Below are positions 2,201 to 63,167 of a stretch of DNA of 64,000 nucleotides, piece after piece. Location: positions 66,381 to 130,380 of the IMG/VR virus record IMGVR_UViG_3300020411_003736. One strand, written 5' to 3'. Source of the DNA: a virus. The notes under the pieces were generated by a model. That model was not told the origin of the DNA. It saw only the letters and a list, made by a program, of their open reading frames with translations, and searched no databases. Positions within the stretch are counted from its first letter, which is position 1. Each line of letters opens with the position of its first letter. Position numbers and translations under genes: made by a program.

Positions 2201-2209
2201 ATCATACTC

Positions 2210-3839: not shown

Positions 3840-4041
3840 TAAAAACCTCTACACAAAGAACATTAGCATCATTCACCATTACAATTCGACCATCTTTCAA
3901 TTCCAACTTAGTCATTTGACCTTGTTTAATTTTTGAAGTAGAGACACCCTCAAATGTCCTCTTAACTCCACCCACAAAATGAATTATCTGAGTTACATAT
4001 TCGCCTTTTTCTTTCAATGATGATTGTAAATCCTTCATCAA
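3829..4041 (-). CDS. Hypothetical protein
   Basis: 70 aa ORF overlapping both neighbours by a few nt. Confidence 0.6.
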   Translation of the reverse strand: MMKDLQSSLKEKGEYVTQIIHFVGGVKRTFEGVSTSKIKQGQMTKLELKDGRIVMVNDANVLCVEVFSEE

Positions 4042-6169: not shown

Positions 6170-6178
6170 AATATTCCC

Positions 6179-8726: not shown

Positions 8727-8727
8727 A

Positions 8728-11846: not shown

Positions 11847-11847
11847 A

Positions 11848-12962: not shown

Positions 12963-13341
12963 TATGACTTTCCATTGTTCTTACTATATTAAAAGCATCA
13001 CTAAAATGTGGCATCTCAACCTTTGTAGACTCCGTTCCCAACTTAGTTATAATATGCCATATCAATTTCCCATCCTTAACATCAGGCGTTATATAATAAT
13101 TTTCACTTGTAAAAACTCCCGGCAACCAATTCCTACCACCTATATTTTTACAAATAGATTTGAATTTATCATCTAAATCATCAGTTAATTTATCTTTATA
13201 ATCACTACTTGACGCATACCCACAATGGACACACTGCATACTTTGTCTTTCATCACCAAGTAAAATTAAAGTGTCTTCTTCATTCCCCTCTTCCACACAG
13301 CAAGGACACTTTACTTTCAATCTCATATCATCGAAACTCAT
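12940..13341 (-). CDS. Zinc-ribbon hypothetical protein
   Basis: CPCC and CVHCGY pairs. Confidence 0.6.
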   Translation of the reverse strand: MSFDDMRLKVKCPCCVEEGNEEDTLILLGDERQSMQCVHCGYASSSDYKDKLTDDLDDKFKSICKNIGGRNWLPGVFTSENYYITPDVKDGKLIWHIITKLGTESTKVEMPHFSDAFNIVRTMESHSGNEIQQ

Positions 13342-16866: not shown

Positions 16867-17717
16867 TCACAATGCTCCGTATCATAAAATTCACAAAACT
16901 TACAAGCGTTGCCAGGTTTTGCTGGATAATTTCTTTTAGTATTATAATCCCCATTAGACTCAAATACCAATTCACGAAACTCATTAAATGCCTTATTAAC
17001 TTTATTAAGAGTAACACTACCATGAGCTGGTTCAAATCTTTGCATCCTACTTACTGGCCAATCAGGATCTTTTGGTATTTTTCTTTTAAGTATGAGAAAT
17101 TCTACAGATATATCATCCAATGGTACATCAAACTTATCTGCATAGAATTGTTTATAAAGAATTAATTGTGATGTTTTATAAAAATCTTTTTTCTGATAAT
17201 GTGTCCAACCACGGGTAGCAGTTTTCAAATCAATTATTTTTATCCCACCATTAATCTTATTCTTTATCACCACATCAAGAAAACTTCTAAACTCCACACC
17301 ATCTTGTAACTTTGTAAATATAGGAAGTTCAATGCCAACCAACTCATAATTCTTTTTCATAAAATACTTAGCACGATGTTTTTTAAAATCTTTAAGTATC
17401 TCTACCCCATCTTCATAGAACTCCACCAACTCACTTTGAGTGCAGACATCAACATTATGTTCTTCTCTAATTTTAGTGAATTCCTTTATCATTTCATTTT
17501 TCAACATCAACTCCAAAGGTAGCCTTTCAGCATCCTTTATAGTATTGTCATAAAACTCACTAAGATAACTCTGAACCACAGTGTGGACAGCAGAACCAAA
17601 TATGGTGTAAATATTACCACTACCTATACTAAGTTGATCTATATATCTAAGCTTCCATTTTAGATTACATTGATTATATGCACTAAATTGAGAATGTGAT
17701 AAAGATTTTAAACTCAT
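16848..17717 (-). CDS. PD-(D/E)XK RecB/Cas4-like nuclease with probable Fe-S cluster
   Basis: SHSQ....QC, FGSAVH, E..D..IIDLKT, QL..Y, CKFC....HC. Confidence 0.85.
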   Translation of the reverse strand: MSLKSLSHSQFSAYNQCNLKWKLRYIDQLSIGSGNIYTIFGSAVHTVVQSYLSEFYDNTIKDAERLPLELMLKNEMIKEFTKIREEHNVDVCTQSELVEFYEDGVEILKDFKKHRAKYFMKKNYELVGIELPIFTKLQDGVEFRSFLDVVIKNKINGGIKIIDLKTATRGWTHYQKKDFYKTSQLILYKQFYADKFDVPLDDISVEFLILKRKIPKDPDWPVSRMQRFEPAHGSVTLNKVNKAFNEFRELVFESNGDYNTKRNYPAKPGNACKFCEFYDTEHCEWGKIL

Positions 17718-18313
17718 ATTATCTCATCTATTAATCCATACTCCAAACATGTTATAGCATCCCACATCAAATCATGTTTTAATATTTCATCTAATTTCTT
17801 CATAGGAAGTTTGGTGTACTTTTTATAAACATCTTTAATGGTTTTCATCATTAAATCTAAGTTCTTTTTCTCATCATCAAAATTAGCGTATGTCCCCCAA
17901 AATTGAGTTGAAACCTGATGAATCAACATATATGAATTTCTGCTCATATATCTTTTTTTACCAACAACCGACATGAATGTAGCAGCACTAGCAGAAAACC
18001 CATCAACATAAGTTTCTACTGGGACCTTACATCTCAATATTGTATCCATCGAAGAAATGCCAGCAACTACAGAACCACCGCCGGAATTTATATATAATTT
18101 AATAGGTGGTGGTTGTATATCAAGATTTAAAGATAGTGTTAAAGCTTTTGTCTCCAATTCACTTATCTTTTTATTTAACTCACTACAGGCATTTCGATTT
18201 ACACCAGAATAGAAATAAATCTTATTATCCTGTACTGATATATGTTTTTCTGTAGCCTCAGCACCACTTTTTCTAGGTTGTGTGGTTTTCTTTTCACCCC
18301 AATGTCTTTCCAC
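17714..18313 (-). CDS. clpP: ClpP-like protease subunit
   Basis: YINSGGGSV, SASAAT (Ser), MLIHQ (His), HD, YGLIDEII. Confidence 0.88.
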   Translation of the reverse strand: MERHWGEKKTTQPRKSGAEATEKHISVQDNKIYFYSGVNRNACSELNKKISELETKALTLSLNLDIQPPPIKLYINSGGGSVVAGISSMDTILRCKVPVETYVDGFSASAATFMSVVGKKRYMSRNSYMLIHQVSTQFWGTYANFDDEKKNLDLMMKTIKDVYKKYTKLPMKKLDEILKHDLMWDAITCLEYGLIDEII

Positions 18314-18852
18314 TACTTTTCTCCTTCTACATATTTTTCTGCTGATTGTATCATACCATTGACTGCATCATCAACCTCTTCTAAAAATCTATCTGTCTCT
18401 GCATCATAATCGAGACCTTCTTCTTCACATTCGTCTTCCCAAAGTCTTTCTGGCGAATCATCCTCATACCATTTAAAGCCTTTTTTACTACCATATCCAC
18501 CAACTAGGAAATCATCACTCTCTTCATCCGCTGTGAACTTTACCTTAACATCTTCATCCAATTCCGCCATCTTTTCTACAAACCTCTCCATAAACCCTTC
18601 TGGAAAACTCCAAGCCGAACAGAAAGTAATATGAGTTTCATTATTATAGTCATCCATATCCTCAACTAATATCCATTTAGGACCTATCTTATCCATTGGA
18701 TACTTTTCATATTTGCCAAAGATAGGTTCTACTGTACCACGAATATGTGGTTCATTCCAACCTGATAAGTCACCGTACCAGTCCCATAGTTTTTCATGAA
18801 CTTCTTTTTTCTCCGAAATAACTTCTGTTCTAGTCCATACATGATTAGCCAT
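18313..18852 (-). CDS. Hypothetical protein (YubB ferredoxin-like fold possible)
   Basis: MANHV start, G.KW, F.SAWS.P pattern. Confidence 0.45.
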   Translation of the reverse strand: MANHVWTRTEVISEKKEVHEKLWDWYGDLSGWNEPHIRGTVEPIFGKYEKYPMDKIGPKWILVEDMDDYNNETHITFCSAWSFPEGFMERFVEKMAELDEDVKVKFTADEESDDFLVGGYGSKKGFKWYEDDSPERLWEDECEEEGLDYDAETDRFLEEVDDAVNGMIQSAEKYVEGEK

Positions 18853-19291: not shown

Positions 19292-19321
19292 AATATACAA
19301 CATTTTTCATATATCATACAA
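19292..19321 (-). promoter_or_regulatory. Sigma70-like promoter TTGTAT-N18-TATATT
   Basis: Upstream of the Nmad1 gene; same pattern at four other sites. Confidence 0.45.
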
Positions 19322-19937
19322 GCTTTTTTATTTTTCTTTTTATTTTTTTATTTAAATAATAAACATATATATTTTTTGGTGCTCTATCTTTAAAAAATAT
19401 ATTTTCGTCACCACTATCATAGCGCCGTTTTATCTCCCTACTATATGGTCTGTACTTTTGATTCATAGACCTACTATGCATTTCTTTCCCATCTACCATC
19501 AAAACAGTACCTTTAGCAGTTTCACCCAAATACTCAAAGTTAGTGGCTTTATATATCACACCATCATGACCATAATGCGTATCAGCAAAAGAAACCACAA
19601 CTTCCATATCTGTATATTGTTTTAACCATTTAAATGTTTGTCCTATGAAATAACTTTCTGTATTCTTAGGCGTATCATCTATACAAACTAATCTTCTAAG
19701 TTCCAAACACTTAGTTGGATTGATTGGATTGTATTTAGCTGCAGTAGATGGCATTGATGGGTAAGCATACATCATAGCTCCAATCATTGTTGGCAATCCA
19801 AAATTACCTTCTCTGAATAAACCAAAGTGGTATAGAGATTGAACTCCATTTACATTATGTGAATAGTGATGTTTCTCTATAAACTTAGCTATCGATTTCC
19901 TCGGTACTTCTTCAACTGTATATTCTGTTACAGACAT
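19314..19937 (-). CDS. Mom-like DNA adenine modification protein (GNAT fold), copy 2
   Basis: HHYS, ELRRL, KNTESYFI, SFAD..GH.G.IYKATNF.Y.G. Confidence 0.8.
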   Translation of the reverse strand: MSVTEYTVEEVPRKSIAKFIEKHHYSHNVNGVQSLYHFGLFREGNFGLPTMIGAMMYAYPSMPSTAAKYNPINPTKCLELRRLVCIDDTPKNTESYFIGQTFKWLKQYTDMEVVVSFADTHYGHDGVIYKATNFEYLGETAKGTVLMVDGKEMHSRSMNQKYRPYSREIKRRYDSGDENIFFKDRAPKNIYVYYLNKKIKRKIKKLV

Positions 19938-26389: not shown

Positions 26390-29122
26390 TTAGAAATTGA
26401 CCGATAGGCCAAGATTGAAGTGTCTTGGTGTTCCCAAGAATACTTCGGCATTATGAGCTGCGTGAACTTTGTCACCATACCCATTGTACTTACTGTTATC
26501 AACAGCATCTTGTACATAAACATCATCAAGCGCATTAAATAAATGTGCAGATAATGTCATATCATAACCAGCGATTTGTGGTAGTTTGTATGATAGATGT
26601 AAATCAAGTTTGGAATAACCTGGGGCTTTCCATACTTGAGCTCTATCTTCTTCACCATCAACTTCACGAGCATCAGGACTCCAATCAGCGTAATTGTCAT
26701 CATACATTTTGTATAGTCCTTGGATACTTAGTCCTTCAATTGGTTTCAATGTCAAACCACCAACATAAGCAGTTTGTGGCATATCTCCAACTTTCAACTC
26801 ATTAAGAGCATAAGTATATTGAGTAGTCATTTGTCCTACGACCTGACCTTCTTCATTATACTCCATTTCTTGATAATCACCTATTGCGTCACCATCAAAG
26901 AACCAATCACCTTTGCTGAAAACAAAGTCAACATCCACCATTTCATGTAATGCAACTTTTGCTTCAACTTCAACACCAGTATGACTTTGGTTCACACCCT
27001 TTAGATAAATAATATCAGTATCACCTGAATCACCTTGACCTGTTTCTACAGATTTTGTAAGGTTTCTATCTTTCCATTGAGTGTTATAGAAACTACCTTT
27101 AAGATTAACCAAATCACTTGCGTATTTTCCACCAACTTCAAAGCTTTGAAACTTCTCATTGTCTGGATTAGAAGCGACTGTACCATCATAGGCAATTACA
27201 TTATCCAAAATCGGTGGTTTTTCAACATATCCAACATTAGCAAATGCTGACATTCTATCATCAAGATTGAATACACCACCACCTTTCACTTGAAAAGTAG
27301 TAATGTTATCAGCAACAACTTTAGAAGCATCAACTGCAAAATGGTCTAAGTAAGAGTATCCAATAGTAGATATTCCACCCATACCATAAAGGTTGAACTT
27401 CTGTATGTCGTATTTACCTTGTAGGAAAGCACCAAACCAATCAACCGTAGTTTCGTTGTGATAAGCGATAATATCACCTAACCCAACTTTCTTACCATCA
27501 GGTGCGTTATCATCAGCAAAGTCTACATAGTAGTCTCCACCAAGTAAATCACGAACCTCACGAGCGTGTTCGATACCAGCAGTTCTCCAATCAATACCGA
27601 CTTGTACCTCTAAATCATCATTTACATCATAATTTAGTTTGGAAATCAATCCATAGGTATTTTGTCTGTTAATTGAATTACGAAGTATACCAGTTGACCT
27701 ATTCTCACTATCTGACCAAGCTGAATCGATGTTTGCTGAGTTTTCAGCAATCTCACCGTTCCAATCCCATGTCCAAGGTGAACTTGAGTACCAAGCATTC
27801 CCTTCGATAGCAGGAAATCGTTTAACACTCCCATAAGTACCTGTACCACCTCCTGAACCACCACTCCAATACAAGATTGAACTTAGTCTAACTTGGTCAT
27901 TTACATCATAGAAATGATTAAGATTGACTAATGGTTTATGAAAGAAATTTTCTCTTTCGTTCAGTAGTGTTGAACTGTACCTATCAGTTGTTCTCGCACC
28001 ATACATATACCAATATTGTTGGCCTGTGTATGATGGATCAACGGGTGCCCAGTTCTGATTGAAAAACCTACCAGCTTCATGCTCAAACTTCTCACCTTCA
28101 GCGAAAGCCTGAGTATCATATCCATCAACATCACCAGCCAACTCTTGTGAATAAGTTGCTATGTTCTGTTTATATAGGTTTTGTCCATGTCTTTGTGGAG
28201 CACCAATTGCATATAACTCAAATCGTTGGTCATCAGATACAGCATAAGATGTACCAAGATAATAAGCCCAAGCATCTGTCCAAGTACCATCAATAAAACC
28301 ATCACCAGTTTTACGAACAACAGTACCACTAACAGCAAGCTTATCACCAATTAAACCTGAGTTATAATTCAAAGTAGATTTAAGGAATCCACCCTCACCT
28401 ACTTCTTGTTTGAACTTACCACCCTTTTCGTGAGCAGCAGGATCGGTGATTATATTCATTGTTCCACCAATGGATGGTGTAGCAAGATTTACAGCTGATA
28501 GACCTCTTTGCATCTGAATGGAAGAAGTAGCATCACCTACACCATCCCAATTAGACCAATAGACCCATCCGTTCTCCATATCATTTTGGGGAACACCATT
28601 TATCATTACTGCAACATTCCGTTGATTAAAACCTCTCACATTTATACGAGCGTCACCAGCCCCACCACCTTGTTGAGTAGCATATACACTTGGCGTAGTA
28701 TTAAGAATCATTGGAATATCTTGAGAACCGAGCCTCACTTCCATTTCAACTTTATCTACAGTAGTATAAGCAACAGGTGTCTTTTCGTCAGCCCGTGAAG
28801 CCAAGACTTCAAGCTCTGACATTGTAACAGCGTCAACTTCTAATAAGAAATTAACTGTTCCAACTATGTCATTCACCGTAACAGTATTTGTTACTGATGA
28901 ATACCCAATAAATGAAGCAGTTACATCATAGTCACCTTGAGCACCAACATCAATAGTGTATTTACCAGACTCGTCTGTTACACCACCTTTATCAGTTCCC
29001 TCAACAACCACATTAGCTCCAACCAAAGGGTTTGATTCCGCATCTGCAACTACACCTACAATGGCTTGACCAAACAAACCTGTCGTGAGTAGTACAGCTA
29101 CGATTAGATTACGATTATTCAT
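26390..29122 (-). CDS. TonB-dependent outer membrane receptor with N-terminal carboxypeptidase-regulatory-like domain
   Basis: Signal peptide, PLVGANVVVEGT..G..TD..G.Y, plug motifs (NVRGF, VMINGVP, QRG..IGGTMNIIT), NALD..Y, C-terminal Phe. Confidence 0.93.
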   Translation of the reverse strand: MNNRNLIVAVLLTTGLFGQAIVGVVADAESNPLVGANVVVEGTDKGGVTDESGKYTIDVGAQGDYDVTASFIGYSSVTNTVTVNDIVGTVNFLLEVDAVTMSELEVLASRADEKTPVAYTTVDKVEMEVRLGSQDIPMILNTTPSVYATQQGGGAGDARINVRGFNQRNVAVMINGVPQNDMENGWVYWSNWDGVGDATSSIQMQRGLSAVNLATPSIGGTMNIITDPAAHEKGGKFKQEVGEGGFLKSTLNYNSGLIGDKLAVSGTVVRKTGDGFIDGTWTDAWAYYLGTSYAVSDDQRFELYAIGAPQRHGQNLYKQNIATYSQELAGDVDGYDTQAFAEGEKFEHEAGRFFNQNWAPVDPSYTGQQYWYMYGARTTDRYSSTLLNERENFFHKPLVNLNHFYDVNDQVRLSSILYWSGGSGGGTGTYGSVKRFPAIEGNAWYSSSPWTWDWNGEIAENSANIDSAWSDSENRSTGILRNSINRQNTYGLISKLNYDVNDDLEVQVGIDWRTAGIEHAREVRDLLGGDYYVDFADDNAPDGKKVGLGDIIAYHNETTVDWFGAFLQGKYDIQKFNLYGMGGISTIGYSYLDHFAVDASKVVADNITTFQVKGGGVFNLDDRMSAFANVGYVEKPPILDNVIAYDGTVASNPDNEKFQSFEVGGKYASDLVNLKGSFYNTQWKDRNLTKSVETGQGDSGDTDIIYLKGVNQSHTGVEVEAKVALHEMVDVDFVFSKGDWFFDGDAIGDYQEMEYNEEGQVVGQMTTQYTYALNELKVGDMPQTAYVGGLTLKPIEGLSIQGLYKMYDDNYADWSPDAREVDGEEDRAQVWKAPGYSKLDLHLSYKLPQIAGYDMTLSAHLFNALDDVYVQDAVDNSKYNGYGDKVHAAHNAEVFLGTPRHFNLGLSVNF

Positions 29123-31278: not shown

Positions 31279-32046
31279 TCATCTATCTATCGTATTTCGA
31301 CTAAATAATGATTTTATTCTTTTTATTTCCACATCTTCTATGTCCGCTTCTTTTGGATAAGGTAAGATAGGATGTTTTAAGTTTTTTAGTATTTTCCTCT
31401 TTTGTTTTTTACTACCTAACAAATAAACATACCTATGTTTTCTCAATTCCTTTTTTATCCAAAAATCTTTCTCAACTAAGGTACTAATCTTCTCTATATC
31501 GTTTGTACCATAATAAGGGAATATAGTTCGTGGATGTTGCCACTTACCATCCTCTTCCCATTTAAATAACCAACTATCCGATGGTCTTATTTTGTTACCC
31601 TGATACAACCAATTTGTTGCCTGATATATAGTCCCGACATGACCTTGTTGTGGATCTGAATATGATATCAAAGCTTTGATATCTTTTCTATTCTTCTTTA
31701 ACCAATCAAAACTCTTTGAAATAAACCAAGATTCAATATTTTTACCATAACCATCATGAACAAATAACCTTACCAACTCAAAAACAGATTCCCTCGGTAT
31801 AATATCCGATATAGAAGCACCAGTAAGCCTACCTATTGGATCACCATAACATATTGTACCAATTAACTCTTCTTCCGGCTCATCAAAAAATGGGTGTTCT
31901 TCACCCGTCAATCGATATAAACCCAAAGCCACACTACATTTAGTCCATTGTGCAGAATAGTGATATTTTATAATCATATTCTTTGCTAACGATTTTGGTA
32001 TCTTCCTAATAGACAATTTAGTTTTATCAAAATACTCAATCATCAC
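31279..32046 (-). CDS. Mom-like DNA adenine modification protein (GNAT fold), copy 1
   Basis: YHYS, ELVRL, KNIESWFI, SYSD..QGH.G.IYQATNW.Y.G, KHRY, PYPK. Confidence 0.82.
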   Translation of the reverse strand: MMIEYFDKTKLSIRKIPKSLAKNMIIKYHYSAQWTKCSVALGLYRLTGEEHPFFDEPEEELIGTICYGDPIGRLTGASISDIIPRESVFELVRLFVHDGYGKNIESWFISKSFDWLKKNRKDIKALISYSDPQQGHVGTIYQATNWLYQGNKIRPSDSWLFKWEEDGKWQHPRTIFPYYGTNDIEKISTLVEKDFWIKKELRKHRYVYLLGSKKQKRKILKNLKHPILPYPKEADIEDVEIKRIKSLFSRNTIDR

Positions 32047-52003: not shown

Positions 52004-52846
52004 TTATAAAATTTTTTCGGAAAACGATACCTTTTTTGGTTTATATGCTCTATTCATTTCGGATGTTTTACCAAATACATTATCAGTAAATTCAGGTATC
52101 ATATACCCCTTAACAGTCATTGTAAATTCATTCCTTATTAGTCTCTCACCTGCATCTTCCATCTCAACCTCATTTGATATTCCACCACCCAAAGAAGTTA
52201 AGAATCTATAACTCGTTTGGTCTCCCCAATAAGTTTCTAAATGTTCTATCATAATAGTATTTAAATCATTCATCTGTTCCATATATGATGTCATCATAAC
52301 AATTGTATATTCACAAGTTACAAAATCTGGCATACCTGTTTTTACAAATTCCTCAACTGGTTTTTGTCCAGTCAATACTGAAAATCTATCATAACGATTA
52401 TTTTTACTCCAACCACTACTAGACCTAACCACATTAATAAATTTCCCTTTAACATCCATATCAAATGAAAGTGGCATATTATCATCAAATGCCAATGAAG
52501 TCCGTTTTATAACAATAGCAGGTAAGAGTATAGCACCATTTCTATCTCTAAGTGTTTGTCTATTTCTTATAGATTTCCATCTCTCCTCATTACCATAAAC
52601 TACTGGAACCTTAACTCTTTCATTAGCCTCTATAACAGTAGGTTTCATTATATTATTCATATGACTGATAATAGCAGTATCAATATCTTTTAATCCAATT
52701 TGATAACCCTTACCAGCATCCTTACCACCAGGCTTTTTTATAACAACTTTAGCATTACCTTTTTCTGAACGAATACTAGTTTGTTCGGCACGATTTATAT
52801 TAGATTTATATCCAGCATTTGGATTTGTTATCGGTTTAATTGCCAC
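52004..52846 (-). CDS. Tail completion/sheath stabilizer (gp15-like)
   Basis: VPVVYG..ERW, LP.I; lies between neck and sheath genes. Confidence 0.7.
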   Translation of the reverse strand: MAIKPITNPNAGYKSNINRAEQTSIRSEKGNAKVVIKKPGGKDAGKGYQIGLKDIDTAIISHMNNIMKPTVIEANERVKVPVVYGNEERWKSIRNRQTLRDRNGAILLPAIVIKRTSLAFDDNMPLSFDMDVKGKFINVVRSSSGWSKNNRYDRFSVLTGQKPVEEFVKTGMPDFVTCEYTIVMMTSYMEQMNDLNTIMIEHLETYWGDQTSYRFLTSLGGGISNEVEMEDAGERLIRNEFTMTVKGYMIPEFTDNVFGKTSEMNRAYKPKKVSFSEKIL

Positions 52847-53285
52847 TTCTTAATTTCCTTAACTTATCTAATTTATTTTCTGACTTATTTTCATATTCTT
52901 CAGATTCTAATTTATTAGAATTTACATCACCAATTTTTAATTGTTTTTTAACATCAACATCAACAGCTTTTAATTCACCATTACTATTTTCAGAACTATT
53001 AGATTCCCCATAAATATTTTTTGTTTTCAATAAACCAAGTATTTCATCCATCTTTTTATCAATTTTATTAGCACTATCATCGGTTTCTTCAGGTGGTGTT
53101 CCAACTTTTTGATTTAGTTGGTATGGTTGTAACGCCCCCTGACCAAGAATAATCTCCCCAGTCTCTTCATTCACCCAAAGTTCTTTTTCTAATTTTTCTA
53201 CTGCCATTTGTAAAAGGGGATTTGTTTGTTTATCTCTAACGATAGGTCTTGGTTCTTGTTTGCCATTTGATGTTTTTTGATACAT
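52836..53285 (-). CDS. Hypothetical protein with C-terminal VDVxVKK...DKLxxLRSG motif
   Basis: 149 aa, tightly packed in the neck operon. Confidence 0.65.
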   Translation of the reverse strand: MYQKTSNGKQEPRPIVRDKQTNPLLQMAVEKLEKELWVNEETGEIILGQGALQPYQLNQKVGTPPEETDDSANKIDKKMDEILGLLKTKNIYGESNSSENSNGELKAVDVDVKKQLKIGDVNSNKLESEEYENKSENKLDKLRKLRSGN

Positions 53286-54943: not shown

Positions 54944-54961
54944 ATATGTTTTCTCCTAACT

Positions 54962-54969: not shown

Positions 54970-54984
54970 AGAATTCAAGAAAAC

Positions 54985-55014
54985 AAAAAGGGGAAACCGA
55001 AGCTTCCCCTTTTT
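54985..55014 (-). terminator. Rho-independent terminator after major capsid gene, C(UUCG)G tetraloop
   Basis: AAAAAGGGGAAGC-UUCG-GUUUCCCCUUUUU on the minus strand. Confidence 0.9.
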
Positions 55015-55040
55015 AGGATCATTAAGAATTCAATGATTTA

Positions 55041-56684
55041 TTAAATGGTATCCAAAGCGGAACACTTAATTAAACCATAAAACTCAGGTCGAATCATCTT
55101 CTTAGCGTAACGAGTCATCACACCTTTTCTTGGTGTAAAATCAGAAGGATCATACACTAGAGGTGTTGTGATTAACGGTACATAAGGTGAATAGACAGCA
55201 CCAGTTTCTAAGAAGTTACTTCCACGGAATCCAACCAATATTTGGTTTTCACTCATGTAAGGGTTCTTATAAACTGTGTATCTACCAGCAGCTTGACCGA
55301 CTTTTGAGACACCCATAGCGAATTGAGCTTGTGCAGCATCACCATCGCCAGGCTGACTTACATAGCCAGGTAATGATTCAAGAATTGTAGCAATCTTAGG
55401 ACCAACTACAACAAAATTAGCACCACCACGTAGTGTTAATCTGTGAATCTCATTAGAGACTTTCTGAATCTTAGCTACTAATGTTTGATACCACTCAAAT
55501 TTCGTACCATAGAATGTATCAGTTACGAAATCAGATGTAGCAGAATCATACACTTTACCCACAGCAGCTGACCAGTAATCAACTGTTACAGCATCAGCAA
55601 TCAACATATCAAGGATTTCCAAATCAATTTCCATTGAGATGTAATCACTCAACATAGAAGTCAATTCAGCTTCTGCATCAATTGAATGATAAGCGTTAAG
55701 ATCTTGAGCAAGCTCAGGTGACCAAACAGCTTTCAATTTACGGGTTTTAGCAACAATAGGTAGAGACCTAAGTTCTAAGTTCACTTCTGGTATGTTCAAA
55801 GTATCTTGAGTAGCATTACCAACTCTATCTTCAAAATCACCACGTGTAGCAGCTTCTGGTTGTTTTGGATATGTTATATTCCAAGAACCATCAGCATCAC
55901 CAGCATCTGAAGCAGATACAATCATCTGTATCTTTGAACCATTTTCAATTATTTGATTGAATTGTGGTACATTAACAGCTCCATTTGATCCACCATCAAT
56001 AACCCAAGCTCTTACAGAAGCTTTATCAGGTCTTGTAAGGCCAGAAATACTAGCTGTTACACGCCAAAGTGCGGTTGTGCCAAGACTACTAGCAGACATC
56101 TCAGAATCGAAATCGATATCTTTAAAAGATGCTGTAGCAAGAGTGCCAGTACCATTATCATCATGACCAAAGGTTACTGCTTTGAAAGATGAACTACCAT
56201 CGGAATAGCCATATTGACCTACACCATAAAATCCACCTTCACCATAAGGTGCGGAAGATCCAGAAGGTGAGTTAGGACCAGTTTTACCATGAAGAGGATC
56301 ATTTAGGGCCTTACCATTAAGGGCAGTACCATATTTGAAATCAAGGTAGAAAACAAGACCAGAAGGTAAGTTCATCGGTTGAACAGAAACTAATTCCTGT
56401 GCAACAATGTTACCGAAAACACGTCTTACCAAAGGAAGAGCAACACCAGACCATTCTTCATCACCTACACCAGCACCAGCTGATGGAGATGTTTTTGAGT
56501 TCTCAGAAATCAATTGACGAGCCTGGTTTTCTAGCAATACAGCCATACCAGAGCGTTGCCACTCATTTTCCATTCCCTCTAAAAGTCCAGATTTCTCCCA
56601 TTTGGTAACGAGTTTTGCTGACTCTTCTTTCTGCTTCCTCATAGGGGAAGGATCGAGAAGAGATTCGTTTACATAATTACTCAT
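55041..56684 (-). CDS. gp23: Major capsid protein
   Basis: LPLVRRVF, VQPM..P.GL.F, AKTRKLKA.W..ELAQDL, Y.PYVPL, P.KG.MTRY. Confidence 0.96.
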   Translation of the reverse strand: MSNYVNESLLDPSPMRKQKEESAKLVTKWEKSGLLEGMENEWQRSGMAVLLENQARQLISENSKTSPSAGAGVGDEEWSGVALPLVRRVFGNIVAQELVSVQPMNLPSGLVFYLDFKYGTALNGKALNDPLHGKTGPNSPSGSSAPYGEGGFYGVGQYGYSDGSSSFKAVTFGHDDNGTGTLATASFKDIDFDSEMSASSLGTTALWRVTASISGLTRPDKASVRAWVIDGGSNGAVNVPQFNQIIENGSKIQMIVSASDAGDADGSWNITYPKQPEAATRGDFEDRVGNATQDTLNIPEVNLELRSLPIVAKTRKLKAVWSPELAQDLNAYHSIDAEAELTSMLSDYISMEIDLEILDMLIADAVTVDYWSAAVGKVYDSATSDFVTDTFYGTKFEWYQTLVAKIQKVSNEIHRLTLRGGANFVVVGPKIATILESLPGYVSQPGDGDAAQAQFAMGVSKVGQAAGRYTVYKNPYMSENQILVGFRGSNFLETGAVYSPYVPLITTPLVYDPSDFTPRKGVMTRYAKKMIRPEFYGLIKCSALDTI

Positions 56685-56707: not shown

Positions 56708-57808
56708 TTAATTTTTTAGGATTCCAGCTAATTTCTTAAAGCGTGATGCAACTTCACTTTCTTCTGTGATAATTTTCTTAGAAGTAGGTTTAGTTGAACC
56801 AGTTTTACGACTAGCTGCTTCTTGAACACTGCGCGACTTCACTTCATTATTTTCTTTCTGCATAGATTCTGCAAGTGTCGAATAAACTAACTTAATTTCA
56901 CGAGTTGTTTGAGCTCTATCAAAGGTCTCAACAATTTTAAGTTTTTGTTCATTAGTCAATGCATACTCTTTGAAAAGTTTATTTGTGTAAAGTAGTTTAG
57001 CATTCAAAATGTTAACTTCATGAAGCTTTTCACGTAAAAATGTGACAGCTTCCTTGTATTCATTAAGCTCAGATTGCAAATATTCAACCTGTTCGTGAAC
57101 TTGACCTTTACCAGGATCTTCTTCATCAGAAGCAGAAGCTTGTTTAACTTGGTTGTCACCTTTTCCGATATTGGAAGAACTAGATTGTTCATCAATTTCT
57201 TCTTCTTCATCTTCTTCTTCGGTTACAACTTCTTCTTCTACTTTTTCGTTGTAAGCTTGTACTTGGTTTCCAGATTTTTTTCGCTTTTCAGCTCTAGTAC
57301 CGGAATACTCTTCAAGCTCTTCATCTTCATCTCCTTCACTAACAGTCTCTTCATCAGATTCTTCAGTTTCAGAAATTTCCTGCTCAAGTTCTTTAATCAC
57401 AGCTTCAAGATCAAGATTTTCTTCGCCATCAAATTCTTCTTCATCATCCATAGGCATTTCTTCATCTTCTTCAGCTACGACTGGGGCATATTTAACGCCA
57501 TCAATTTCAATGATTTCAGATTCATCTACTTCTTCATCATCCATAGGTGCTTCATCATCCATTTCCATATCATCCATAGGTGCTTCTTCTTCTCCGTAAC
57601 GAGCCATATCTTCAGCATCCATCTCTTCATCATCTACAGCCACTTCCATTTCATCTTCATCTTCCATATCATCTTCAGCTAATTTAGCGGACAACATAGA
57701 TTTAAGTTGTGGAGCGAATGCTTCTTGAAGAGCGATTTTAGCGTTTTCTAATGCGGTTTCACGAACTGCTTTAGCATCTGCAATAGCTTCTTTAAGCAAA
57801 TCAGACAT
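56708..57808 (-). CDS. Prohead core scaffold protein
   Basis: Very acidic, Glu-rich coiled coil directly upstream of gp23; C-terminal RFKKLAGI. Confidence 0.8.
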   Translation of the reverse strand: MSDLLKEAIADAKAVRETALENAKIALQEAFAPQLKSMLSAKLAEDDMEDEDEMEVAVDDEEMDAEDMARYGEEEAPMDDMEMDDEAPMDDEEVDESEIIEIDGVKYAPVVAEEDEEMPMDDEEEFDGEENLDLEAVIKELEQEISETEESDEETVSEGDEDEELEEYSGTRAEKRKKSGNQVQAYNEKVEEEVVTEEEDEEEEIDEQSSSSNIGKGDNQVKQASASDEEDPGKGQVHEQVEYLQSELNEYKEAVTFLREKLHEVNILNAKLLYTNKLFKEYALTNEQKLKIVETFDRAQTTREIKLVYSTLAESMQKENNEVKSRSVQEAASRKTGSTKPTSKKIITEESEVASRFKKLAGILKN

Positions 57809-57914
57809 ATTATTGTCTCCATATATGTTTTATATTGGAATAAAGTTATTTTGGAACTTTAATAGAGGTTTCTATTTTTAGACACCATATCAACCATGGT
57901 GTATTGAGGTATAT

Positions 57915-57922
57915 ATAAATAT
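57915..57922 (-). promoter_or_regulatory. ATATTTAT late-promoter-like motif
   Basis: Upstream of the scaffold/capsid leader. Confidence 0.55.
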
Positions 57923-57926
57923 AAAA

Positions 57927-58166
57927 TTAATTAGAAAAAGAAGCTTTTAAATGTTTTTTTCTTAGAATCAAACTCTTAGCTTTTTTTCTTTTAGTAACAG
58001 ATGGTTTCTCATAAAAGCTTCTATCTTTTATCTCTTTCATCAAACCTGACAACTTTACATTCTTTTTGAATCTTCTTAACATAGAATCCACTGTTTCGTT
58101 TTTCTTTGCTTCTATATGAAGTCTTATATGTTTTATTTTTTTTAACTCTTTATCTTTTTTATTCAT
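57927..58166 (-). CDS. rpsU: Ribosomal protein bS21 (phage-encoded)
   Basis: MLRRFKK.V..SG...EIK.R.FYEKPS..RK signature. Confidence 0.88.
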   Translation of the reverse strand: MNKKDKELKKIKHIRLHIEAKKNETVDSMLRRFKKNVKLSGLMKEIKDRSFYEKPSVTKRKKAKSLILRKKHLKASFSN

Positions 58167-58435
58167 TAGAAAAAATCTTTATATTTTACATTTTCCATTG
58201 TCACCAACTTATTCGATATTTGTTGTTTGATATATCTATCAGCCAAATGTTTCTCTCTACCATATTTAGCTTTATCCCACTTCTTCTGTAATGATGGTGG
58301 TAAATCAGTCTCATTCAACCCATTATTTATAAATGAAGCAATTCTTCTAGAATCAACATTTGGTATCTTACGATATCTAAATTCCTCTAAAGTCTTTAAC
58401 CACTTAGTAACCTCTTTAATTGTCACTTTCTTCAT
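58166..58435 (-). CDS. Hypothetical protein
   Basis: 89 aa, coupled between the actin-like gene and bS21. Confidence 0.65.
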   Translation of the reverse strand: MKKVTIKEVTKWLKTLEEFRYRKIPNVDSRRIASFINNGLNETDLPPSLQKKWDKAKYGREKHLADRYIKQQISNKLVTMENVKYKDFF

Positions 58436-59465
58436 TTTCTTCCTCTACCAACATAGCTTCCGATAAACATCCTCTCGAAACAGCTGTATGGGCATCTTCA
58501 ATTAATATAATTTCTTTAATTGGAATCGGAAATGTATCTTGGTCGAATTGTTCATTGAACACATCCACAAATCCTTTAACCAATGATGTTCCCCCACCTA
58601 TAACTATTGGTACAGGTTCAGGAAAATTAGGTACATTTTCAACACCTTCAAACTGAACTTTTAGGTTCGTTAATAAATAGTTGATAAGAGCACCATAATA
58701 AGAACGAAGCGCAATTAAAATGTTAGCTTCTTCCGAACCCTCATCATAGATATTATCAATATGTGATTTAGATATATCTAAAGTATTTGAATTTTCTTTT
58801 ATGCTTGTTACTTTTGCAACAGGTGAGCCTGTATCCATAGCCACATTTGAATCAACCCAATCACCACCTCTGGCAACACTAAAAGATAAAGCAGTCATTC
58901 CTTGATACATAACAGCAACATTACACATACCAGCACCCATTGATATCGATACTCCAGTTAAAGCACTATCCACCAATCCCTCATATCCTAATGCCACAGC
59001 CTCTTCAATCACTTTAACCTCATAACCATACTGTTCAATAATAGTTTTCAATACATCTTCATGATAACTCACTTCTCTATTTTCATCAATTGGTTTTGCA
59101 GGTATGCAATATACGCAAACTTCTTTATTAGTTTTACCTTTCTGTTTTTTTGCTTTACCTAAAATCTCACCAACGATAGCATTCAATACTGGAAGAGCAT
59201 CATTTTCAGATGGATTTAATAATCCACTTTTCATTGGTCTTCTTAATGTTGATGTGCTAAATATTTGAGCATAATTAAATGCATGTTGACCAACTATATG
59301 TACCTTACCACTCTTCTCCACATAAGGTATCTTTTGTCTTGCCAACATTCTCTTAACCTGTGAAGTCTCTCCTTCAACAGTTAAAAAAGCATTTCTCTGT
59401 TTTTTGATTTTCTTTTCTCTAGCTGCGATATAAAATGATGTCCCGCAATCTAATCCTACACTCAT
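58416..59465 (-). CDS. Actin-fold ATPase (volactin/MamK/FtsA-like)
   Basis: GLDCGTS (phosphate 1), EEAVA (connect 1), SMGAGM (phosphate 2), ARGGD, IGGGTS (adenosine), AVSRG (connect 2). Confidence 0.88.
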   Translation of the reverse strand: MSVGLDCGTSFYIAAREKKIKKQRNAFLTVEGETSQVKRMLARQKIPYVEKSGKVHIVGQHAFNYAQIFSTSTLRRPMKSGLLNPSENDALPVLNAIVGEILGKAKKQKGKTNKEVCVYCIPAKPIDENREVSYHEDVLKTIIEQYGYEVKVIEEAVALGYEGLVDSALTGVSISMGAGMCNVAVMYQGMTALSFSVARGGDWVDSNVAMDTGSPVAKVTSIKENSNTLDISKSHIDNIYDEGSEEANILIALRSYYGALINYLLTNLKVQFEGVENVPNFPEPVPIVIGGGTSLVKGFVDVFNEQFDQDTFPIPIKEIILIEDAHTAVSRGCLSEAMLVEEENEESDN

Positions 59466-59785
59466 AACCCACTCCTAAGTTCTTTTAATTTATCTTTTTG
59501 TAACTTTACAGATCCATCTATTGTTTCATCTGTATCTAATTTAAAATCTGTTGGTTTTTCAGCAACGATATGTTTCTTTACATTCACGTCTACAACCCCA
59601 ATATCTTTCTTTCTATTTGGCAATTCAACTTCAACTGCAGTTGGTGTTGAAATGGTTTTATAAATTTCTTTAGGTCTTTTCCCATAATGATTCTTTAGTA
59701 ATAAATGTATTATAAATCCTATTTGCCATAAAACTAACGAAATTAATAAATAGTTAAGTAACCATTCTATTAGCAATTCTCTCAT
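59462..59785 (-). CDS. N-terminally membrane-anchored protein with C-terminal VDVxVKK...DKLxxLRSG motif
   Basis: Hydrophobic residues about 4-30; ATGA overlap with the actin gene. Confidence 0.7.
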   Translation of the reverse strand: MRELLIEWLLNYLLISLVLWQIGFIIHLLLKNHYGKRPKEIYKTISTPTAVEVELPNRKKDIGVVDVNVKKHIVAEKPTDFKLDTDETIDGSVKLQKDKLKELRSGL

Positions 59786-61385
59786 ATGTTTCTTGTAACT
59801 TATGTTTCTTTGGTTTCTTTTCCTCTTTTATAGCTCTATATTTTTTGCCATTAATTGTTTTAATTTTTTCTGTACCAGTTCTCATAGGTCCTAATTTATT
59901 GGGATTATCTCCCCAATATGGATTGTCGGCCAACCTAGGTTCTCTCTTTGTAGGTTCTTCAACCCAATTTGTTTTATCAGCACCTCTACCACCATTTGGT
60001 ATAATTATTGCATGACCACTTTCTCCCCACTCTTCTGCGGATGGAACATCTGGATCACCAGGAAATGAAGTAAGAACAGAATGTGACTTCCCATCTTTTA
60101 AATCTTGTTGAACATCAGAATCATTTTTTACCTCATCATCCATAAAATCTGGATTAGATGGTCTAACTACTACATTTAATTGGTCGGTTGCAAATTCTTC
60201 CATATCATTATCCACTATATAAGCATCAACTTCTACCATTTCTCCACGAACTTGCTTCTTAACTTTAATTTTTCTCGCGTTTGGATGGTTCTTTTCAATA
60301 TCAGAAGCCTTTTGTACTAAATTAAATCCAGCGTTTGGAACTGTTGTGGTATGTACTCCACCACCCTTTTCATAAAATTCTTCAGGTATATCACTTATAG
60401 CATTCTCAATATCATCCATTTTAACTTTATCGCTGAAAACAGAACCTTCACCTGGTTTATTATGTCTTTTTATATGTTCTTTAGTGGGATTTGCAAGTAA
60501 TACATTATGACCACCATTACCACCTATTCGATTTGTTGTTTGACGAGGTCCTTTTTCATCGGGTGATTTCGTAGTAATTGTACTACTATTTTTAAACTTT
60601 GCACTTTGCAATCGAGCATAATTAACTGCGTCTGGGCCGAAATCAGATGGTCTAGGTCCTGGACCTCCCATCATATATGGATCATTACCAAACCTTTGGT
60701 GATGTTCTTCTGAAGCTTTTTCATATTTTTTATATGCCTCTTTAGCCTTTTTTAATTCATCTCCTTTCGGAGCTGTTGACCAATCCTTACCATCCCAATA
60801 TCCTTTTTCCTTTTCTTCTTGCTCTTTATCAGCTAGTCTCTTCGCAGCTGCAGCATATCTTTTTTCGGCAGCCTTTTTATCTGCATCTTGTTTTTCTTTT
60901 TCAGCTGCAGCTTTAGCAGCTTTCTCTTCTGCATCCTTTTCCATTCTTTTTTTGAATTTACCACCAGGATCATGACCTGTATGATGGAAATGTCCAAAAG
61001 TGCCAGGTGCATGCCATTTTCCGGAAACAGGATCCTGAACAGCCTGGTTTGCTAGAGATGGTATAGGAGCATCTGATGCGGCCTTACTAGCATCATCATC
61101 ACCACCAAAACCACCACTTGGATCTATTTTGGTTTGTTTTGCGTCAGGCTTTTCTTCAGCATCACCATCAGCTGATGGTTTTTTATCATCTAAACCTGCT
61201 GCTGCAACGGCAGCTTTCTTATAATCACTATCAGGATTACTTGCATAATCCTTAGCAGTATCCATGGATATAGTATGAGTTTTTTCTTCTTCATCATCCT
61301 TCCCCTTATATTTGAAGGTGACGCTATCTTTACCCTTTGGATTATCCGCAGCTTCAGTATATAAAAGTGATTTTAAAAGAATCAT
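59754..61385 (-). CDS. Putative head internal protein with EndoU/RNase-toxin-like domain (543 aa from re-called start)
   Basis: GGAG RBS before ATG at 61385 (MILLKSLLYTEA); HIKRH...GSVF...VLTSFPG. Confidence 0.55.
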   Translation of the reverse strand: MILLKSLLYTEAADNPKGKDSVTFKYKGKDDEEEKTHTISMDTAKDYASNPDSDYKKAAVAAAGLDDKKPSADGDAEEKPDAKQTKIDPSGGFGGDDDASKAASDAPIPSLANQAVQDPVSGKWHAPGTFGHFHHTGHDPGGKFKKRMEKDAEEKAAKAAAEKEKQDADKKAAEKRYAAAAKRLADKEQEEKEKGYWDGKDWSTAPKGDELKKAKEAYKKYEKASEEHHQRFGNDPYMMGGPGPRPSDFGPDAVNYARLQSAKFKNSSTITTKSPDEKGPRQTTNRIGGNGGHNVLLANPTKEHIKRHNKPGEGSVFSDKVKMDDIENAISDIPEEFYEKGGGVHTTTVPNAGFNLVQKASDIEKNHPNARKIKVKKQVRGEMVEVDAYIVDNDMEEFATDQLNVVVRPSNPDFMDDEVKNDSDVQQDLKDGKSHSVLTSFPGDPDVPSAEEWGESGHAIIIPNGGRGADKTNWVEEPTKREPRLADNPYWGDNPNKLGPMRTGTEKIKTINGKKYRAIKEEKKPKKHKLQETYERIANRMVT

Positions 61386-61392
61386 TTTAAAT

Positions 61393-62001
61393 TTACTCCA
61401 TGAAAGATTCGTAAATGGGTCTAGGATCAGCAACTGGCGCATCAGATTTTTTCTTATATGTCTTACCAGCAAATCTCCATCCTACTATTTTTTTACCACC
61501 ATCTTCACTTTTTACAGCCTTAGAAACGGCAGCTCTGCGTCTGTTTAAATATGCATCACTATCATCAACATCACCATCATTATCGACATCATCATCTTCT
61601 TGACCAACAGGATCCAAAGCTTCATCAATATCATAATATCTATTCAATATATTCCCCATATCCTCATAAAGAGCAGAAAGTCTTTGATTTGTATTATGAG
61701 CTTCTACAGCAGTCTTTTTAAATTGACCTGTTAAACCTTTAAGTTCTTTCATATTTCTCTTAACAGAAACAGAATCAAACCAATCATCAGTTTCACTTAA
61801 AATGTGATTTTGTGCAGATTCAGCCATTTGGACAAGTTGTTTAGCAGCTTCCAGAATACCACCACTACTATAAATCTGTTTTCCAACTGTTTGGTAATTT
61901 CTAACAGCTTCAATTACCTCATGTTTGTTTACTTGTGGTTTTTCTTCAACAGCACTTACTGCGATATCTTCAACCATTCCCATTAATTTAATATTTTTCA
62001 T
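61393..62001 (-). CDS. Hypothetical head-region protein
   Basis: Helical; EALDPVG.ED.DVDNDGDVD..D.YL EF-hand-like acidic motif. Confidence 0.65.
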   Translation of the reverse strand: MKNIKLMGMVEDIAVSAVEEKPQVNKHEVIEAVRNYQTVGKQIYSSGGILEAAKQLVQMAESAQNHILSETDDWFDSVSVKRNMKELKGLTGQFKKTAVEAHNTNQRLSALYEDMGNILNRYYDIDEALDPVGQEDDDVDNDGDVDDSDAYLNRRRAAVSKAVKSEDGGKKIVGWRFAGKTYKKKSDAPVADPRPIYESFME

Positions 62002-62780
62002 TATTTATCTCCAAAAAATCTATCGTAATTTTCTTTTAAAAAATGTTTATTAGATTTTTTTGATTCTTTTATTGGTTTGTATTTTTTTCCATTAATTACT
62101 TTAATGTTTTCTGTACCAGTTCTATATTGAGAACCTCTATGCCCGAGAGCACCCATCATCCCACCAGGACCTGGGTGACGACTAGAACTTGATTTAGATG
62201 GTTTATCCAACATATCACTAGCCGTTTTCTTGAAATTTGCTACCTTTTCATCAAAATCATCCCAATTATCGTTATCTCTGGCATCCATATAAGAATCTTC
62301 AATATCAGAATGCATACTCGCTAATTCATCAGTATTTTTTTTACCTAATTTATCTTGATGATTTTCTAACCAATCACCCATTTCATCTGGATCACTAAAC
62401 TGCTCTAACTCATCTTTAGCTTGTTCCTTTTCGGCTGCTTTTTTATCAACTGAAACGGCTCCAGCATCTTTATCATCGCCACCAAAACCACCAGTAGCAC
62501 TTATAGAAGTTTGGTTTGGTTCAGGTTTATCTGGTGCTTCTCCACCTGTGCCACCTGGTTCATTGTCCGCTGCATGACCATATTGGATATAAGCTTTAGC
62601 TTTCTCTTCTGAGTCAAAGTATTCGATTTCACCTTTATGCTTTCCAGCCCAATATCCACCAGATGTTTCATATGGAGTTTTCTCTCCAGGTCTGTCTGAT
62701 ATTTTATCTCGCTTTGCAGTAATTTTAGCATCACTAATAAAAGATTCAGTCATATAGTGTTTGTATGTCGATTTTTTCAT
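62001..62780 (-). CDS. Putative head internal protein, partial paralog of 59754-61385
   Basis: Shares GGFGGDD linker and RTGTE.IK.INGKKY..IKE tail. Confidence 0.6.
   Translation of the reverse strand: MKKSTYKHYMTESFISDAKITAKRDKISDRPGEKTPYETSGGYWAGKHKGEIEYFDSEEKAKAYIQYGHAADNEPGGTGGEAPDKPEPNQTSISATGGFGGDDKDAGAVSVDKKAAEKEQAKDELEQFSDPDEMGDWLENHQDKLGKKNTDELASMHSDIEDSYMDARDNDNWDDFDEKVANFKKTASDMLDKPSKSSSSRHPGPGGMMGALGHRGSQYRTGTENIKVINGKKYKPIKESKKSNKHFLKENYDRFFGDK
62080..62123. repeat. 44-bp direct repeat (second copy 59839-59882)
   Basis: 40/44 identical by manual comparison; encodes RTGTE.IK.INGKKY. Confidence 0.85.
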
Positions 62781-62794
62781 AATTCTTCCTAAAT

Positions 62795-62802
62795 ATAAAT
62801 AT
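62795..62802 (-). promoter_or_regulatory. ATATTTAT late-promoter-like motif
   Basis: 14 nt upstream of the ATG at 62780. Confidence 0.5.
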
Positions 62803-63167
62803 TACCTTCTAAGCTTTCCTTTCTTAGAATACCTTCTAAACCCATCACGAACTTTATTCCATAGCATTTTCATAAATGGTCTTTCACCCTCATGTGTTCT
62901 ATTTTGATATCCAAATTCTATTGCCCTTTGGATATCCAATGCATCATATCTACCACCTTTTACACCATCCATCATAATTTTAATAATTTGATGTGAAGCT
63001 TTACCTAAAATATTTGACATCTTTTTGATATCTTTATCTAAAATAATTCTTGCCTCATCTGAACTAAAAGTTGAAGGTGCTTCATTCACCCCCTTAAATG
63101 CTCTAGCAGGATTATGTTTAGAGATATGACCCATTTGGTCTTTAAGTAAATCTACTAAATTAATCAT
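62802..63167 (-). CDS. Hypothetical head-region protein
   Basis: MINLVDLLK leader, VNEA. Confidence 0.65.
   Translation of the reverse strand: MINLVDLLKDQMGHISKHNPARAFKGVNEAPSTFSSDEARIILDKDIKKMSNILGKASHQIIKIMMDGVKGGRYDALDIQRAIEFGYQNRTHEGERPFMKMLWNKVRDGFRRYSKKGKLRR

Follow-up and report, generated by a model that had tools for sequence, protein, structure and literature searches.

Introduction

Volactin (VolA, HVO_2015) of Haloferax volcanii is an actin whose dynamic filaments bridge the cytoplasm and contact the membrane by their tips, with binding factors that the main text of its founding paper describes as unknown (PMC10869688). A gene of the same Pfam family (PF25216), matched over its full length, is the subject of this study; within the family, dynamic filaments in vivo are known for the Haloferax protein only. 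The gene lies at positions 58416..59465 (minus strand) of a 64,000-nucleotide stretch, hereafter the window, which comprises positions 66,381 to 130,380 of the IMG/VR viral record IMGVR_UViG_3300020411_003736. Unlike volactin, this gene is viral, has a probable Bacteroidota host, sits among head genes and has a neighbour with a transmembrane (TM) helix; it is implausible that the rod-to-disc shape role of volactin should apply to the phage protein, family membership meaning homology and not the same role. We find the actin fixed in a clade of marine phages; during infection, these phages probably assemble their own cytoskeleton.

The phage cytoskeletons known so far are the PhuZ and TubZ tubulins of jumbo phages and DNA-moving actins of the ParM/AlpC type. 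In nucleus-forming jumbo phages capsids traffic along PhuZ, and the PhuZ spindle is a possible functional analogue as a phage cytoskeleton that organises virion production. PhuZ, however, has a tubulin fold and belongs to jumbo phages, whereas here the fold is that of actin, the genome is of ~130-180 kb and no phage-nucleus genes were identified; we tentatively regard the system proposed below as an actin-based counterpart of PhuZ capsid trafficking. AlpC of the Corynebacterium prophage CGP3, with AlpA, and ParM, with ParR, are likewise actins of mobile elements with the adaptor encoded alongside (PMC4446434, PMC5539076), and viractins of giant viruses are further viral actins. AlpA and ParR are adaptors that attach to repeats in DNA and have roles in replication or segregation, whereas the present locus has no repeat array, a membrane-protein neighbour and a place in a lytic, T4-like head module, and its actin belongs to a different subfamily from AlpC and ParM.

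MamK, the magnetosome actin, positions organelle-like cargo along its filament. It is both the closest solved structure and the best Protein Data Bank (PDB) profile match to the phage actin, from which it is set apart by an identity of 15-17%, by a score far under the cut-off of the MamK family model and by the absence of magnetosome genes. Closer in sequence are volactin-like genes of Planctomycetota (37-41% identical to the phage protein), which form a separate branch and have no abutting upstream TM open reading frame (ORF). The MamK-like protein saltatorellin forms filaments in Escherichia coli (bioRxiv 10.1101/817700). Our literature search returned no report of a phage volactin or of an actin in a phage head module, and no mention of PF25216; the main text of the founding volactin paper contains 'phage' and 'virus' 0 times (PMC10869688).

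Results

The ORF encodes a volactin-family actin

58416..59465, minus strand: volactin-family actin-like ATPase with an acidic C-terminal tail; intact ORF of 349 residues with an ATG start

An initial annotation, made from the letters of the window alone, had singled out this intact 349-residue ORF for five actin/Hsp70 motifs, and all five can be read in its translation (residues 4-10, 154-158, 175-180, 290-294 and 328-332). The phosphate-1, connect-1, phosphate-2, adenosine and connect-2 motifs are intact, and the ATP-site residues fall on columns without variation among the 47 diverse members of the family that were aligned (D6, G8, E155, G177, G179, G291, G292 and G332). The Pfam Volactin model PF25216 (gathering cut-off 35 bits) matched residues 1-337 with 243.5 bits (expectation value E 5e-72) over profile positions 1-321 of 321; among 14 control genomes the same model scored above cut-off in one, that of Haloferax volcanii. 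In BLASTP the protein was 34% identical to a haloarchaeal PF25216 protein from Halogeometricum borinquense (P0303) over residues 1-345 (E 2e-65). The volactin-like segments that the annotation had named are all present and are identical or near-identical in this alignment.

Preference for the volactin family over MreB, ParM and FtsA, also claimed there, agrees with the BLASTP result and with the Pfam and NCBIfam scores. Pfam MreB_Mbl (PF06723) reached 30 bits against a cut-off of 27, covering residues 51-208 only and far under the Volactin score. The NCBIfam models for MamK, MreB, MreBH and FtsA gave 17-30 bits where their cut-offs are 176-515: 16.8-28.1 bits for the MreB models TIGR00904 and NF010539 (cut-offs 293-515), 29.6 bits for the MamK model NF040964 (cut-off 400; partial, residues 51-208) and 20.3 bits for the FtsA model TIGR01174 (cut-off 175.85). 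The Pfam FtsA model PF14450 scored 17.9 bits (cut-off 31.8). No PHROG family was found for the actin, nor for the neighbouring or related proteins g107, g89 and g149 described below.

An AlphaFold2 model built on the 47-sequence alignment had a mean predicted local distance difference test (pLDDT) score of 94.4 and a predicted template modelling (pTM) score of 0.92. Foldseek of this model against the PDB placed Mbl/MreB, MamK, BeeR and actin at the top (E 1e-15 to 1e-12), and VIA-align gave Z scores of 28.0 for the MamK filament (root-mean-square deviation 3.0, 299 residues), 26.9 for BeeR and for Mbl, 26.3 for MreB and 26.2 for F-actin, at identities of 15-18% to the MreB and MamK structures. 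A search of PDB sequences with the family profile likewise ranked polymerising actins best (MamK E 2.3e-17, BeeR 6.8e-11, MreB ~1e-8, FtsA 2e-6) and the non-polymerising EutJ (E 0.003) and PilM (E 0.01) well behind. Best matches among non-polymerising enzymes of the actin/Hsp70/sugar kinase superfamily, which would have told against the annotation, were thus not what these searches returned. The single sequence had no significant match in the PDB, the best being EutJ (E 0.069). Among the viral structures of BFVD the best match was gp506 of Bacillus phage G (16% identity), and viral Hsp70 homologues were also matched, with template modelling scores, normalised by target length, of 0.31-0.37. 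The ORF, at 349 residues, is a bare actin fold without a substrate-binding domain. It is a genuine volactin-family actin-fold ATPase with an intact nucleotide-binding site, and its nearest characterised structural relatives are all polymers; by analogy with them, the phage actin likely polymerises too.

The actin lies among head genes in the actin-seeded loci

59462..59785, minus strand: g107, with an N-terminal TM helix and a basic 46-residue C-terminal module, which may serve the actin as membrane anchor or adaptor; the stop of g107 and the start of the actin overlap by 4 nucleotides
58166..58435, minus strand: g89, a small basic ORF and conserved neighbour
57927..58166, minus strand: phage ribosomal protein bS21 (PF01165 53 bits, phrog_21469)
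56708..57808, minus strand: acidic scaffold-like protein at the gp22 position, so named by position and composition
55041..56684, minus strand: major capsid protein of the T4 Gp23 family (PF07068 256 bits, phrog_138)

All genes of the actin region are on the minus strand. Downstream of the actin come, in order, g89, bS21, the acidic scaffold-like ORF of 366 residues and the Gp23-family capsid protein; g89 and bS21 alone separate actin and scaffold, as the initial annotation had it. After the capsid gene follow a head-tail adaptor-like protein, two small ORFs and a gp15-like tail sheath stabiliser. The scaffold-like ORF had no Pfam or PHROG family match, and g89 none in Pfam, PHROG or NCBIfam.

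We examined 80 actin-seeded IMG/VR loci, identifying neighbours by tblastn, where misses are largely contigs that end early. The order g107, actin, g89/S21, scaffold, gp23 capsid was conserved in 80/80 loci, with matches to g107 in 68, to g89 in 73 (its place relative to the actin varies among relatives), to bS21 in 61, to the scaffold-like ORF in 71 and to the capsid protein in 68 of them. The contig of the window ends short of the genes further upstream, and five longer relatives were examined instead: all five have a T4-type prohead protease (Peptidase_S77) at a distance of 3-6 kb upstream of the actin, and three have a Gp20 portal upstream, the loci of the other two possibly ending before it. 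Because the protease is upstream in these longer relatives, the actin is flanked by the prohead protease on one side and by the scaffold and capsid genes on the other, which bears out the claims that it is phage-encoded, given the viral record and the IMG/VR relatives, and that it is placed among head genes.

The actin is fixed in a phage clade and under strong purifying selection

In a large protein collection the family numbered 854 clusters at E <= 1e-3, the best 120 of them 79-95% identical to the actin, and at least 118 relatives were confirmed in IMG/VR, including the 80 examined. The stretch or part of it occurs in 20 listed sequencing runs from 12 studies. In a capsid-seeded test, for which we took loci with at least 5 kb upstream of the capsid gene and split them at 58% capsid identity, the actin was carried by 8/8 loci at or above 58% and by 1/9 below; hence the clade defined by the capsid has the actin fixed. 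The actin was more conserved than the capsid protein in 43/43 loci with both complete (median 78% vs 74%), and its pairwise ratio of nonsynonymous to synonymous substitution rates (dN/dS) was 0.08-0.11, compared with 0.15-0.25 for the capsid gene, ratios that are rough because dS is near saturation. Purifying selection on the actin is thus strong in this abundant clade of marine phages.

g107 and g149 share a basic C-terminal module

52836..53285, minus strand: g149, a soluble protein whose gene has the neck-region gene g158 on one side and that of the gp15-like tail sheath stabiliser on the other, a candidate virion-side adaptor

Homologues of g107 mostly end 0-3 nucleotides from the actin start, have a predicted TM helix in 29/29 aligned members and carry a conserved, strongly basic stretch at the C-terminus. 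g149, in which a TM helix was predicted in 0/15 members, ends in the same C-terminal module: profile-profile comparison of the two families with hhalign gave a probability of 98% (E 1.5e-13) over 46 columns. A hidden Markov model (HMM) of the module matched exactly two ORFs in the whole 130-kb record, g107 and g149, and one or two ORFs in 78/87 scanned records; it found none in the sister lineage, in the huge phages or in the corresponding regions of Flavobacterium phage immuto and Microcystis phage Mel-JY01. Among capsid-seeded loci with both g158 and gp15 homologues, a module-bearing ORF stood between these two genes in 25/25 loci of the actin clade and in 0/8 of the sister clade, where g158 and gp15 abut. 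The actin, g107 and g149 are hence a clade-specific trio, and this trio and the module shared by g107 and g149 are new here.

Over its last 15 residues the actin carries a net charge whose median is -7 (from -8 to -2 across 29 clade members), complementary to tail charges of +6 in g107 and +4 in g149. Searches of Pfam, PHROG and NCBIfam found no DNA-binding domain in g89, g107 or g149; INPHARED held no match for g149 or for a divergent g149 homologue, and the best ESM Atlas scores for g149 and g107 (0.83-0.84) gave no usable lead.

The volactin family in cells and in other phage lineages

A library of representatives at 50% identity contained 1,029 family members at E <= 1e-3 and 284 at 1e-30. 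A pattern-seeded scan of GTDB species genomes found at least 587 relatives, of which the best 80 are nearly all from Planctomycetota (37-41% identity). PF25216 scored above cut-off in 65/151 Planctomycetota genomes and in 1/201 Bacteroidota genomes, in the latter on a 204-kb contig that is also in IMG/VR as viral. NCBI annotates one Planctomycetota member as volactin. The Planctomycetota genes are sometimes present in 2-3 copies and often have long N-terminal extensions or tandem actin domains of ~700 residues.

Trees were inferred with FastTree (185 sequences) and with IQ-TREE under a mixture model (64 sequences). The clade of the window forms a single branch in both (support 99 and 100, respectively), not nested in any cellular group, and its sister is the 204-kb phage lineage together with one unplaced protein (support 97 and 94). 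In both trees Planctomycetota form a separate branch, the haloarchaeal sequence falls elsewhere and does not group with the window clade, and the actins of two huge phages lie separately from one another and from the clade of the window, the starred branches being compatible with a single origin of those two. The backbone lacks resolution in both trees, so no donor lineage can be named.

Judging by the trees, the volactin family has members in several distinct phage lineages. In the sister clade of jumbo phages (12 loci, with actins 60-100% identical to that of its member L083) the order is amidase, p357, small TM ORF, actin, p159, portal-like gene; the small TM ORF abuts the actin, and the portal-like call is weak (phrog_16240, E 2.7e-8 and 2.8e-6). 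In L083 the portal-like and glycosyltransferase-like genes (7684-10680 and 11068-12804) are interrupted by intein/LAGLIDADG elements. In a further lineage, L259, the second gene upstream of the actin encodes a head maturation protease (E 1.8e-38), and in L257 and L258 a 'protease' PHROG follows the actin. A missing link to head genes in related phages, the other outcome that would have counted against the initial annotation, was accordingly not encountered, since the linkage recurs in other phage lineages.

The basic C-terminal word of the window clade also ends the actin-abutting ORF in 3/10 distinct variants from outside the clade, a fourth being a near-miss, compared with a background of 21/12,664 ORFs that have the word in their last 12 residues. 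Two of the three variants belong to the sister clade and one to a lineage with a 36%-identical actin, whose upstream ORF has an N-terminal TM helix. This is a suggestive recurrence across lineages, not demonstrated homology.

Further features of the head-gene locus

61393..62001, minus strand: g202, a conserved upstream neighbour (65/80 loci), matched only by PHROG families of unknown function
59754..61472, minus strand: g572, a low-complexity protein directly upstream of g107 (tblastn match in 2/80 loci; no Pfam or PHROG match)
62794..62802, coding strand minus: intergenic word ATATTTATA, a candidate phage promoter, nearest copy upstream of the actin
57914-57922, coding strand minus: second copy of ATATTTATA, between the S21 and scaffold genes
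54984..55015, minus strand: strong terminator-like hairpin right after the capsid gene, with a 14-pair stem followed by a T run

The C-termini of g572 and g259 (62001-62780, minus strand) are paralogous and have a glycine/aspartate-rich motif in common, and the proteins of relatives at the g572/g259 position carry DUF3008; both may be prohead core or internal proteins. As to bS21, freshwater Bacteroidetes phages carry it beside head genes with late expression, on the opposite strand, while here it is on the head-gene strand between actin and scaffold; that paper mentions neither actin nor MreB (PMC9723584). S21 is further encoded by Mel-JY01 and on the 204-kb contig of the sister phage.

Further ATATTTATA sites lie in short intergenic gaps at 54961, 51637, 31270 and 16434 (coding strand minus), the word being found upstream of g259 and of the scaffold, adaptor, sheath and other genes. 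This intergenic placement alone suggests that ATATTTATA is a possible phage promoter: its total count, 13 vs 9.9 in shuffled sequences, does not stand out from these, and the intergenic word ATATTTATW, which is related to the T4 late-promoter word, is with these figures a lead only. The T4 late-promoter word TATAAATA itself showed no enrichment (14 matches vs 13.8 expected) and so cannot serve to call the actin gene late.

The phage and its host

26390-29122, minus strand: SusC-like TonB-dependent receptor of 910 residues with a CarboxypepD_reg and Plug N-terminus, the best hint to the host

The window makes up the final 64 kb of a record of 130,380 bp, estimated to be 71% complete, which encodes T4-type replication, tail and head proteins and in which no plasmid-maintenance genes were seen. 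The phage, which is uncultured and marine, is a distant T4-like myovirus and looks lytic. Its capsid protein is ~50% identical to those of Microcystis phage Mel-JY01, Flavobacterium phage immuto and one uncultured huge phage, and 38% to that of Rhodothermus phage RM378. The nearest cultured relatives, immuto and Mel-JY01, lack the actin; ORFs of 388 and 360 residues at comparable positions in them matched no Pfam family, and that of Mel-JY01 is dissimilar to the actin. In INPHARED the actin matched only two uncultured huge phages (30-34% identity).

Some match to the SusC-like receptor, an unusual outer-membrane auxiliary gene for a phage, was found in 98/101 Bacteroidota genomes, full-length and at 47-51% identity in 4/101, compared with weak and partial matches in 3/101 Pelagibacterales genomes. 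The best score of the phage bS21 was 43.8 bits in Bacteroidota vs 30.5 bits in Pelagibacterales, and the occurrence of bS21 next to head genes in freshwater Bacteroidetes phages (PMC9723584) is a further hint to this phylum. Bacteroidota are most likely the host phylum. Pelagibacter was considered and rejected: the 73%-identical actin in a Pelagibacter metagenome-assembled genome sits on an 8.6-kb contig with phage gene order (L082), most likely a mis-binned phage contig. Clade contigs have been deposited in metagenome-assembled genomes labelled Candidatus Pelagibacter and Candidatus Woesearchaeota (P0009); these placements are probably binning errors and could mislead host assignment.

Other genes of the record include a sugar block (window 157-16063, minus strand) with NeuB, a cytidylyltransferase, a DegT aminotransferase, a GDP-mannose dehydratase, epimerases, several glycosyltransferases and an FkbM methyltransferase, which looks like a phage-borne pathway for nonulosonic acid or a surface glycan. 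Three paralogous Mom-family genes (PF25680, 149-153 bits each; window 19314-19937 and 31279-32046, minus strand, and L173:12380-13162, minus strand), with a DUF1599 nucleotide-modification domain beside them, suggest elaborate DNA modification. A ClpP-family protease (window 17714-18313, minus strand) is encoded at a great distance from the head module, with replication and modification genes around it, whereas the S77 prohead protease of relatives is upstream of the actin. The first half of the record encodes a protein with a GmrSD-like N-terminal domain, a DruA-like (Druantia) protein and a POPDC/cyclic-nucleotide-binding protein (L174:15499-16854 and 17183-18379; L172:728-1372), besides PhoH, peptide deformylase, Hsp20 and a pyrimidine-dimer glycosylase.

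Discussion

We propose that the actin, g107 and g149 may constitute a phage filament with two adaptors that organises virion assembly, a serious possibility on present evidence, if short of probable. ATP-driven polymerisation would produce dynamic filaments in the infected cell, as with volactin and MamK; the TM helix of g107 would tether them to the inner membrane; and g149, encoded among neck and tail-completion genes, would couple them to a virion assembly intermediate, with the basic module of both proteins docking on the actin, which is strongly acidic. Docking of this kind on actin-like partners is known from the C-terminal peptides of ParR, arcadin-2 and FtsZ. A tip-anchoring membrane partner would fit, since volactin filaments touch the membrane by their tips. 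Such a filament system could mark or organise the membrane sites of T4-type head assembly, or move heads or tails between steps. That g107 is the membrane anchor and g149 the virion link, both binding actin by the module they share, seems quite possible without being the safer bet; that the purpose is spatial organisation of virion assembly we put forward tentatively; and the version complete in every part, a three-part actin cytoskeleton in which g107 and g149 grip the filament by the same module and organise T4-type head/neck assembly or particle traffic, is doubtful.

Several observations weigh against this proposal. The co-occurrence of the trio counts as one evolutionary event, because there is only one clade boundary, and in about a dozen divergent loci g107 is separated from the actin by 0.3-3.4 kb. 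Outside the clade, some sister jumbo-phage members are without the basic C-terminal word, hhalign comparison of the actin-abutting ORFs of other lineages with g107 and g149 gave probabilities of 0.4-2.4%, which are not significant, and three phage lineages (L260, L162 and L163, that is L260 and the two huge phages) have no nearby head genes. A small TM ORF abuts the family genes of Planctomycetota upstream in 0/71 and downstream in 2/71 cases; with the upstream TM ORF missing there, the idea of an anchor cannot be extended to cells. Finally, the contigs assembled from two metatranscriptome runs of a single study covered the scaffold and capsid genes well and the actin with one 151-nucleotide contig per run (58590-58742, 0-1 mismatch), where RNA contigs do not rank genes and carry-over of DNA is possible.

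Among other explanations, the phage actin could serve host takeover, copolymerising or competing with MreB, FtsA or their partners and so causing division arrest or a change of shape or size, and a bigger factory, with g107 placing it at the membrane. The MreB/MamK fold is common to the phage actin, whose residues 51-208 score just over the Pfam MreB_Mbl cut-off (30 vs 27 bits); the family is nearly absent from the likely host phylum (the one positive among 201 Bacteroidota genomes being a phage contig), which would make the filament foreign there; and volactin acts on cell shape in Haloferax (PMC10869688). An identity of 15-18% to the MreB and MamK structures is, however, low for copolymerisation, a shape or division factor would not be expected in the head module with a module protein in the neck block, and Pfam and PHROG searches revealed no known division-inhibitor family nearby, so that we judge this unlikely. 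Quite unlikely, in our estimate, is DNA positioning, whereby the filament would move or separate phage genomes or deliver DNA to proheads, and g89 or the g107/g149 module would be a DNA-binding adaptor. The prophage actin AlpC works in this manner (PMC4446434, PMC5539076), the dynamics of volactin resemble those of ParM (PMC10869688), and g89 and the modules are rich in lysine and arginine. Yet positions 57700-63000 contain no centromere-like repeat array, only short families of 2-3 copies; no DNA-binding domain was matched in g89, g107 or g149, an unrecognised adaptor being possible; and no genes for plasmid maintenance were seen in the phage, which looks T4-like and lytic.

In T4-type phages the interval from prohead protease to scaffold is where prohead core proteins are encoded, and closteroviruses use Hsp70 homologues in virion assembly. 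The actin occupies this prohead-core slot and has viral Hsp70 homologues among its BFVD structural matches, as might a non-filamentous head protein, either an ATP-driven chaperone-like factor for scaffold, capsid or portal or a protein packaged with the prohead core. We consider this very unlikely: the protein is a bare actin fold with no substrate-binding domain, its nearest solved relatives are all polymers while enzyme and chaperone members of the superfamily score far lower, and the Hsp70 template modelling scores are low. That the gene is a passenger from a cell with no role in infection would accord with the abundance of the family in cells (65/151 Planctomycetota genomes) but is contradicted by its conservation and can hardly be true, the gene being kept in every sufficiently long clade contig, with a dN/dS of ~0.1 and greater conservation than the capsid protein in 43/43 loci, and the phage clade being a branch of its own (support 100 in IQ-TREE, 99 in FastTree) outside the cellular groups.

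A volactin family regarded as haloarchaeal is thus common in Planctomycetota, and an actin subfamily different from those of known phage cytoskeletons is fixed in an abundant marine phage clade, at the core of its head genes and kept more strictly than the capsid protein. If the actin polymerises, ordinary-sized lytic phages too would organise the cell interior. With g107 and g149 there are now two small proteins that may bind such filaments, in a family for which no partners are known, Haloferax included; were the three-part reading true, no filament of the volactin family would have had candidate binding partners before these two, and no phage an actin-based assembly line for virions before this one.

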